Assembly: GCF_003351905.1 (NCBI RefSeq)
Contig: NZ_CP022339.1
Span: 930,001-962,000 of the forward strand
DNA length: 32,000 nucleotides
Direction: 5' to 3'
From: Candidatus Saccharimonadota bacterium
GTDB lineage: Bacteria; Bacteroidota; Bacteroidia; Cytophagales; Amoebophilaceae
Part shown: positions 23,008 through 23,454 of the stretch, in pieces
How positions within the stretch are numbered: the stretch's first letter is position 1
Layout: each line of letters begins with the position of its first letter
Program-made: the position numbers and the translations under genes
Notes under the pieces: model-generated
The model's database searches: none
Seen by the model: only the letters and a program-made list of their open reading frames with translations
Told to the model about the DNA's origin: nothing

Positions 23008-23133
23008 AGCTTTATTGTCATAGTAGCTTAATGGAGCCAGTGCATCCATCAGGATGCCTATATGTGTATGCGCTCGCTTGCATCAACAAACTTAATATGT
23101 TATAATTTAATAATTTTATACTATATATTTTTC

Positions 23134-23392
23134 GTATCTGTTCACGATACTGGTTCATAATGCATTTTATCCCACTTTTTTTCTTGATAAAAAAGTGGAC
23201 AAAAAATCAATCCCTCGGTAAAAAGTCGCTGAAAGTGCCATCTTACAGATGGAAAAACAGAAAGCGCCCCCTTTGGGGGCTTCAAAGGAAACTGTTTTTC
23301 CTAATCATCTGTAAAATGCCACTTTCTAAACCGCGACTTTTTTCAGGGGCATTGTTCTTTTAACGTAAAAAACCACTGCGCTGAACACATAC
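23134..23392 (+). mobile_element. MITE-like element, full-length copy B with 8-bp target-site duplication
   Basis: The TIRs are gtatctgttcacg (23134-) and rc gtatgtgttcagc (-23392). The direct repeat tatttttc lies at 23126-23133 and 23393-23400. Internally there is the hairpin ccactttttt-tcttgat-aaaaaagtgg and a long imperfect palindrome centred on gccccc-ttt-gggggc. An uninterrupted paralogous site is at 21541-21567. Confidence 0.9.
23251..23280 (-). terminator. MITE-borne GC hairpin plus T-tract (terminator-like), sense to murF-alr
   Basis: On the minus strand, gccccc-aaa-gggggc (perfect 6-bp GC stem) is followed by tttctgtttttcc. It lies about 175 nt downstream of the murF-alr stop. Confidence 0.35.
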
Positions 23393-23454
23393 TATTTTTC
23401 AATATAACAAGCTGTCTGTCTTAGATTTATGGTGATTATCAAGTAAAAATATAA

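Follow-up and report, generated by a model that had tools for sequence, protein, structure and literature searches.

A previously undescribed miniature inverted-repeat transposable element family with 8-bp target-site duplications in Cardinium genomes

A stretch of 32,000 nucleotides from a member of the Amoebophilaceae (positions 930,001 to 962,000 of NZ_CP022339.1; hereafter, the window) contains a 259-bp noncoding element, designated copy B (23134-23392, forward strand), upstream of a putative lipoprotein gene. [quoted passage not shown] The best explanation of this family, and one that we consider very probable, is that it was moved by a DDE-type transposase making 8-bp staggered cuts. The sister genome is that of Candidatus Cardinium sp. 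TP (hereafter, Cardinium sp. TP), which lives as a symbiont in the mite Tyrophagus putrescentiae: the product of the murF-alr fusion gene of the window is 93% identical to its homolog in that genome and approximately 80% identical to those of other Cardinium. Because the flanking DNA common to the two is only 85 to 95% identical, the window comes from a sister lineage of Cardinium sp. TP.

Copy B and the evidence for transposition

The boundaries of copy B were obtained by direct reading. Its left end is GTATCTGTTCA (23134-23144), and its right end is TGAACACATAC (23382-23392; reverse complement, GTATGTGTTCA); the terminal inverted repeats (TIRs) agree at 10 of 11 bases and extend imperfectly to approximately 22 nucleotides (nt), with 16/22 matches. 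This reading bore out the ends, the coordinates, and the exact 8-bp duplication that had been proposed in an initial annotation made from the sequence alone. The features of the element are as follows:

23126..23133, no strand: left 8-bp target-site duplication, TATTTTTC, by direct reading
23134..23157, forward strand: left TIR, GTATCTGTTCACGATACTGGTTCA, with conserved blocks at positions 1-10 and 16-22
23266..23292, no strand: predicted central G+C-rich palindrome, terminator-like on both strands, from a consensus scan only
23369..23392, reverse strand: right TIR, reverse complement GTATGTGTTCAGCGCAGTGGTTTT
23393..23400, no strand: right 8-bp target-site duplication, TATTTTTC, by direct reading, an exact match to the left one

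With 96.5% identity, copy B is the closest of all copies to the 258-bp family consensus, and it has a near full-length hairpin fold (DNA minimum free energy, -52.7 kcal/mol; z = -8.8). The sole open reading frame (ORF) inside it (67 amino acids [aa]) has no Pfam match, an Rfam scan of the whole window gave no match in copy B (the single match being a tRNA), and tblastn searches with Cardinium transposases gave no match inside the family copies. Copy B and its relatives are without detected coding capacity. The absence of a transposase gene from the window, as initially annotated, held in both the Pfam and the tblastn searches.

Pairs of MITE-type ends were scanned at spacings of 60 to 4000 bp in 478 kb of Cardinium DNA, including the window. 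Among the 50 pairs lying 250 to 350 bp apart, the 8-bp flanks were identical (8/8) in nine and matched at 7/8 positions in two, whereas none of the 117 control pairs at the other spacings reached 7/8 (maximum, 6/8). Given a per-base match probability of 0.262, an 8/8 match is expected by chance at a frequency of approximately 2e-5; a chance origin of the flank duplications is excluded. The nine exact duplications belong to copy B and to eight elements of Cardinium sp. TP, and their sequences all differ and are A+T-rich (TATTTTTC, AATTTTGG, AAAAAAAC, TAAATGTT, TCCTATTC, TGTGCATT, TTCTATAT, GATGCTTA, and AAAAAATA). Whether other copies carry duplications or merely recur at fixed sites had been posed as the test of the initial proposal, and the duplications across the family, together with the empty sites (see below), answer it in favor of transposition. 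Copy A of the window (see below) is among the copies at 7/8, to which a copy-by-copy analysis added others, and a fixed 8-bp duplication of variable sequence is found in at least 11 copies.

Three empty sites accompany these duplications. One, for copy B, lies in the leader of the neighboring paralogous gene and is described in the next section. The other two involve the following features of the window:

491..746, reverse strand: copy A (256 bp; identity to the consensus, 93.8%)
440..775, forward strand: relic arm (440-490 plus 747-775) of a related element, older than copy A, which inserted in its hairpin
6101..6173, forward strand: uninterrupted homologous relic arm, with a single CTTTTTTC at 6144-6151
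28439..28446, reverse strand: orthologous empty site of the insertion at L030:4954-5302 in Cardinium sp. TP, where AAAAAATA occurs once, at the stop codon of infC

The flanks of copy A, CTTTTTTT (483-490) and CTTTTTTC (747-754), agree at seven of eight positions, and for this copy the site at 6144-6151 provides another paralogous empty site within the window. The insertion in Cardinium sp. TP is a 349-bp composite member located between infC and rpmI, with the duplication AAAAAATA. At its boundary, the TAG stop codon of infC is regenerated from the target TA and the first G of the element (L030:4952-4954 versus 28438-28440 in the window). This composite is one of three longer forms (291, 338, and 349 bp) consisting of a standard copy plus extra outer ends; because the duplications sit at the outer ends, these nested composites moved as units. 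The duplications and empty sites across the family support what had been proposed for copy B, namely, a nonautonomous TIR transposon that has transposed. Insertions also differ between the window genome and Cardinium sp. TP, and from this difference, together with the closeness of copy B to the consensus, we infer that the insertion of copy B is relatively recent.

The duplications and empty sites exclude a fixed, nonmobile repeat. The corresponding alternative, in which no transposon is involved and a palindromic regulatory or structural repeat (REP/BIME-like or terminator-like) was spread by the duplication of larger segments, could appeal to the strong hairpin with its terminator-like center, to the left-flank sequence shared by several Cardinium sp. 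TP copies, as expected of segmental copies, and to the fact that in three lineages (the window, OZ034918.1, and cOegib) murF-alr has a family member just downstream of it. However, these copies vary in their orientation and precise location, and Cardinium sp. TP and the Cardinium of Dermatophagoides farinae have none there; the shared left flank belongs to a longer composite with its own outer ends and duplication; and nine different exact duplications stand against zero in the controls. Support for a selected structure is likewise essentially nil: the covariation term across 20 aligned family copies, the TIR ends of which are conserved, is +0.58, with double changes in 5/50 pairs. Because there is almost no covariation, the palindrome looks inherited, without demonstrable selection. 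We assign this alternative a negligible probability.

Movement as a single-stranded hairpin would be a further possibility for an element that is palindromic over its whole length, by either an HUH (IS200/IS605-type) enzyme or the PD-(D/E)XK proteins of Cardinium, whose "putative transposase" genes are abundant in these genomes (i.e., Rpn/Transposase_31 proteins or AAA-ATPase_like plus PDDEXK_9 proteins, one of which is encoded at 7556-9388). HUH elements have neither TIRs nor target duplications, whereas fixed 8-bp duplications and TIRs are the rule in this MITE family, and PD-(D/E)XK proteins of these families are not known to carry out TIR-dependent insertion with duplication. Such a route is very unlikely.

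The gene pair and the split promoter-like motif

Copy B lies upstream of one member of a pair of paralogous genes. The relevant features are as follows:

20163-21428, reverse strand: 421-aa gene, paralog of the 457-aa gene
21676-23049, reverse strand: 457-aa gene, with its start codon at 23049 and copy B upstream
21540..21567: paralogous empty site for copy B, the forward-strand 28-mer TTATACTATATATTTTTCAATATAACAA, uninterrupted, upstream of the 421-aa gene
21540..21567, reverse strand: the same 28-nt motif on the coding strand, TTGTTATATTGAAAAATATATAGTATAA, promoter-like TTGTTA-N17-TATAAT
23405..23410, reverse strand: -35-like half (TTGTTA) of the split motif of the 457-aa gene
23115..23120, reverse strand: -10-like half (TATAAA) of the split motif, approximately 65 bp upstream of the start codon of the 457-aa gene

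When copy B and one TATTTTTC are removed, 28 nt are identical between the leaders of the two paralogs; the single uninterrupted target previously reported in the neighboring leader is real, at 21540-21567. Even with three mismatches allowed, the 28-mer has no other occurrence in the window (shuffles with a match, 0/100), and its TTGTTA-N17-TATAAT was the best promoter-like match in the region in a sigma-70 consensus scan. The motif is kept upstream of the ortholog in Cardinium sp. TP (L030:10535-10560) and upstream of the second paralog in the D. farinae Cardinium (TTGCTATATTCAAAAATATATAGTATAGT). The 457-aa and 421-aa proteins are only 32% identical, and the distant D. farinae Cardinium already has both paralogs; it follows that the identical 28-mer represents a conserved cis-element rather than a fresh duplicate. 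The initial statement that the insertion is younger than the gene duplication holds, but, since this duplication is ancient, it dates almost nothing.

Upstream of the 457-aa gene, the corresponding TTGTTA-N17-TATAAA is split, with its halves 267 bp apart (i.e., copy B plus one copy of the duplication). By inserting between the promoter-like hexamers, copy B probably silenced or rewired this putative lipoprotein gene. The lipoprotein assignment is predicted from the N termini of the 421-aa and 457-aa proteins, which carry lipobox-like LYAC/LHAC sequences; neither protein belongs to a Pfam family, with only a weak, subthreshold match to TBCC_N. The gene pair is intact in the window, is represented by one fragmented gene in Cardinium sp. 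TP, and is absent in OZ034918.1, and it looks like a decaying lineage-specific family.

The Cardinium sp. TP locus matches the murF-alr flank of the window on its upstream side and the leader of the 421-aa gene on its downstream side, which indicates that this genome lost the 457-aa paralog by a deletion between the two motif copies, with the junction in the motif. In the same locus, a family copy (L030:11690-11948) abuts the end of the homology to the 421-aa gene (approximately 20409 in the window) and has no duplication, which suggests that, after the insertion, a deletion next to it truncated the gene. The leaders of both paralogs in the D. farinae Cardinium (CP101107.1; L032, approximately 12555-12690 and 14110-14245) contain a palindromic element of approximately 135 bp with inverted ends of approximately 20 bp (GACCTTCTGCAAAACCTATT…AATAGGTTTTGCAGAAGGTC), which we report as a third MITE-like family targeting the same gene pair.

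Family members in the window and across Cardinium genomes

The window contains two full family copies and four fragments. In addition to copies A and B and the relic arms given above, these include the following:

26003..26160, forward strand: family member that is truncated and has an internal deletion, located between a tRNA gene and the start of murF-alr
21585..21640, reverse strand: short relic arm of a related element, adjoining the paralogous empty site

In the truncated member, the right end is present twice in tandem, as …GAACAGATAC (at 26130) and as …GAACACATAC (at 26160). Window genes near the elements include dnaB, the murF-alr fusion, suf genes, infC, and rpmI. The 610-aa gene at 7556-9388 (AAA-ATPase_like plus PDDEXK_9 [DUF1703]) shows a repeat of another kind: its 3' end (9240-9340) forms a 101-nt inverted repeat, 87% complementary, with 12972-13072. 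These arms bracket an M16 peptidase gene, an arrangement that may be what is left of a second copy in inverted orientation.

A 22-mer from the element center has 29 exact matches in Cardinium sp. TP and none in other species-representative genomes, and a BLAST search of approximately 0.2 Mb of sampled Cardinium sp. TP DNA recovered at least 59 family pieces, 35 of them 200 bp or longer. The Cardinium sp. TP copies are 85 to 96% identical to the consensus. OZ034918.1 and cOegib contain diverged members (72 to 87% identity), and so does the D. farinae Cardinium, both on the chromosome and on plasmid p_A, which carries one partial copy (72 to 75% identical); plasmid p_B carries none. A metagenome scan with the 20-nt left end returned five contigs representing one locus of an unrelated organism (47% G+C). 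Because the match lies inside an ABC-permease gene, it was rejected as a chance one.

Several members have unusual contexts. The OZ034918.1 member at 12614-12862 (L036:12563-13031) is flanked by a 17-bp direct repeat, GAAAAAGCAAATAGCTG, rather than an 8-bp repeat, and an outer element with ends of the same type surrounds it; both paralogous genes are missing there. In Cardinium sp. TP, the central loop of one family copy holds an unrelated 248-bp MITE-like element (L005:7078-7325; ends, CTTACTATTAC…GTAATAGTAAG) with an exact 9-bp duplication, CCCAAAGGG (7069-7077 and 7326-7334). Large multicopy genes for sodium:solute-symporter plus HD-domain proteins (approximately 1150 to 1200 aa) are repeatedly bordered by family copies, as at L023:142-7954 (in the order MITE-gene-MITE-gene), L027:2468-6145, and L036:21306-22505, and duplication of these genes may draw on homology between the family copies. 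In 26 loci of Cardinium sp. TP, repeated ORFs proved to be this symporter/HD-domain gene family and not a transposase.

Candidate transposases and related elements

In the mechanism that we propose, a transposase supplied in trans would bind the imperfect TIRs of approximately 22 bp, recognizing the pattern GTATCTGTTC, four variable bases, and then ACTGGTT. It would join the element ends to a target cut with an 8-bp stagger, and repair of this stagger would leave the 8-bp duplication. The initial annotation had recognized no insertion sequence (IS) family in the ends. We compared them in register with IS ends read from cOegib and Cardinium sp. TP elements and with those of a published MITE:

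IS256-family element: ends GGAAGTGTTC-N4-WAACTGTGTCA; 12-15/24 matches to the MITE ends
IS6/ISCca2: ends GGTTCTGTCKCG; 8-11/24
MITECca01 (published; L035:5558-5797): ends ACGTGAGTTCGGGATT; 7-10/24
IS982/ISCca4: ends ACCTMAGTTCGGGATT; 7-9/24

The ends are thus closest to those of the Cardinium IS256 family, a link that is suggestive only. Random 24-mers reach 15/24 or better against either MITE end with a frequency of 3e-4, and the variable block (positions 11-14) coincides in the two elements, both of which have bipartite ends (G-N-A-N-N-TGTTC, the variable positions, and then ACTG-N2-T). The Cardinium IS256-family IS (ISCca9/ISCca10 type; Pfam Transposase_mut) also resembles the MITE in making an exact 8-bp duplication (GCCGTATA; L043:527-1873). 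It differs in its tip (GGAAG versus GTATC/GTATG) and in its length and content (1347 bp with a 408- to 412-aa transposase, whereas the MITE encodes nothing). The genome of cSfur, the symbiont of Sogatella furcifera and the nearest described relative of Cardinium sp. TP (PMC10117132), has at least 12 "Transposase Mutator family" genes, its largest transposase cluster (PMC6147030). We infer IS256-type parentage or cross-mobilization of the MITE, and an IS256-family (Mutator-type DDE) transposase may be its mobilizer; this is the most likely single candidate, although we put it at somewhat below an even chance.

An IS6-family (ISCca2-like) transposase ranks next and would have moved the same MITE through cointegrates, with homologous resolution yielding simple insertions. 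IS6 elements make 8-bp duplications, which is compatible with those observed here, and the core TCTGT(T/C) is common to GGTTCTGTCKCG and GTATCTGTTCAC. Cardinium sp. TP has an intact IS6 transposase on a collapsed contig of 847 bp (L039; JAUEML010000054.1), i.e., a contig of the element's own length, which suggests several near-identical, recently active copies, and it is the sole complete transposase reported for this genome (PMC12039267). However, the in-register identity of its ends is only 8-11/24 versus 12-15/24 for the IS256-type ends, GGTTCTGTCKCG and GTATCTGTTCAC match at 6/12 positions, and GGTTCTGT-type ends with the typical GG tip were not found, the tip of the MITE being GT. The supplement of the cSfur study moreover lists no ISCca2 for cSfur and gives this element as common to cEper1 and cBtQ1 only (PMC6147030), and cointegrate chemistry is a less direct route to clean 259-bp simple insertions. 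We consider IS6 an improbable mobilizer, the remaining probability falling to an unsampled or extinct partner.

The family could also be a fossil whose partner, perhaps of the IS66/ISBst12, IS1595, or ISL3 type, has been lost, with the copies now immobile and subject to recombination and decay only. IS66/ISBst12 elements have GTAA tips and 8- to 9-bp duplications. Neither an autonomous copy in the 478 kb nor transposase fragments near the copies were found, the copies are 4 to 15% off the consensus, and many are truncated, nested, or without duplications, all of which fits this scenario. However, insertions differ between the window genome and Cardinium sp. TP, the perfect duplication and lowest divergence of copy B indicate mobility at least past that lineage split, and the sampling covered only a fraction of each genome. 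A fossil family is possible but, on balance, doubtful. A Logan contig (L037) contains a fragment of an IS1595-family transposase.

Among known elements, the nearest in kind are MITECca01 and MITECca02 of cOegib, which are noncoding, TIR-bounded, highly multicopy elements of approximately 240 to 260 bp (Halter et al. 2022, PMC9769881). They are mostly intergenic or nested in mobile DNA and are thought to depend on an IS transposase in trans; both were reported as confined to cOegib (PMC9769881). The present family comes from the same genus and is the same kind of element, but MITECca01 has IS982/ISCca4-like ends (ACGTGAGTTCGGGATT), whereas the present family has GTATCTGTTCA ends and 8-bp duplications. 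The identification of copy B as MITECca01 was rejected: the ends match at only 7-10/24 positions, BLAST found no similarity between the two elements, and the ISCca4-like ends ACSTNAGTTCGGGATT and downstream AGMTTGTW motif of MITECca01 were not found in copy B. In the literature searched, MITECca01 and MITECca02 were the only Cardinium MITEs, and the present element is not described in the cTPut, D. farinae Cardinium, cSfur, or cBtQ1 papers, the NAR MITE survey, or the 2025 Cardinium review. The Cardinium sp. TP paper applies the term "MITE" to transposase fragments (PMC12039267).

Classical MITEs are short, TIR-bounded, nonautonomous elements with target duplications, often forming hairpins and often located in promoters or terminators, with regulatory side effects (PMC10969869). 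The present MITE resembles Correia (Neisseria), RUP (Streptococcus pneumoniae), and MITEAba12 (Acinetobacter) in these traits and differs from them in sequence and host phylum. Its host is a maternally inherited intracellular symbiont, in which MITEs are rarely reported. Correia and RUP duplicate TA, whereas the present MITE duplicates 8 bp. Rickettsia palindromic elements are similar in being palindromic repeats of approximately 100 to 250 bp that proliferated in an obligate intracellular bacterium. They typically lie in frame inside genes, without defined TIRs or duplications, whereas the present MITE has both and is mostly intergenic.

Taken jointly, an undescribed genus-wide family that was mobile after the split from Cardinium sp. 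TP, formed nested composites, was cross-mobilized by an IS256-type transposase (approximately 60% end identity), and whose youngest copy split the anciently conserved promoter of a lineage-specific lipoprotein gene is a reading that we hold tentatively, as its combined probability is well below even. Several observations weigh against the best explanation given at the outset or parts of it. Approximately two-thirds of the full-length copies have no recognizable duplication; such losses are expected from decay, nesting, and adjacent deletions, which may account for the individual copies. The copies are 85 to 96% identical to the consensus, so that activity today is only a possibility. The promoter call derives from a sigma-70 consensus that is perhaps unsuited to a member of the Bacteroidota, and the Cardinium sp. 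TP locus was rejected as an orthologous empty site for copy B, as it is not clean but a deletion.

The remaining points concern the transposase. No autonomous element with MITE-type ends occurs in the 478 kb, where the duplicated pairs all span 256 to 349 bp, and a search for fragments of IS256-, IS982-, or IS5-type transposases found none in the window or in what was sampled of OZ034918.1, the D. farinae Cardinium, and the Cardinium sp. TP lineage. In tblastn searches of all sampled DNA with the IS256, IS6, IS982, and IS5 proteins of cOegib, the sole match was the IS6 contig, and, as mentioned above, the one intact transposase on report from Cardinium sp. TP is of the IS6 family. A search for IS256 homologs returned copies from cOegib, Wolbachia, and metagenomes, with the Cardinium sp. 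TP lineage not represented. On p_A and p_B, the plasmids of the D. farinae Cardinium (159 kb), no DDE transposase is annotated. A match of 15/24 is also far below the near-identity usual between a MITE and its parent. Finally, direct descent of the MITE from the Cardinium IS256-type element is not supported because, in a BLAST search against L035, the two share nothing beyond their ends.

The mechanism itself, a DDE transposase with an 8-bp stagger, is a textbook one. The insertions of the family include functional sites, one splitting a promoter-like motif and another lying on a stop codon that is regenerated by the first base of the element. Automated annotation of these genomes misses such repeats or miscalls small ORFs in them, and the family supplies dated insertion markers for the comparison of strains. 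MITEs are rarely documented in maternally inherited endosymbionts, and the published Cardinium case was presented as strain specific. A second, older, and wider family would show that nonautonomous elements are a regular part of genome erosion in Cardinium, and copy B, if our reading is correct, would directly illustrate how a MITE can drive regulatory decay in an endosymbiont whose genome is undergoing reduction.

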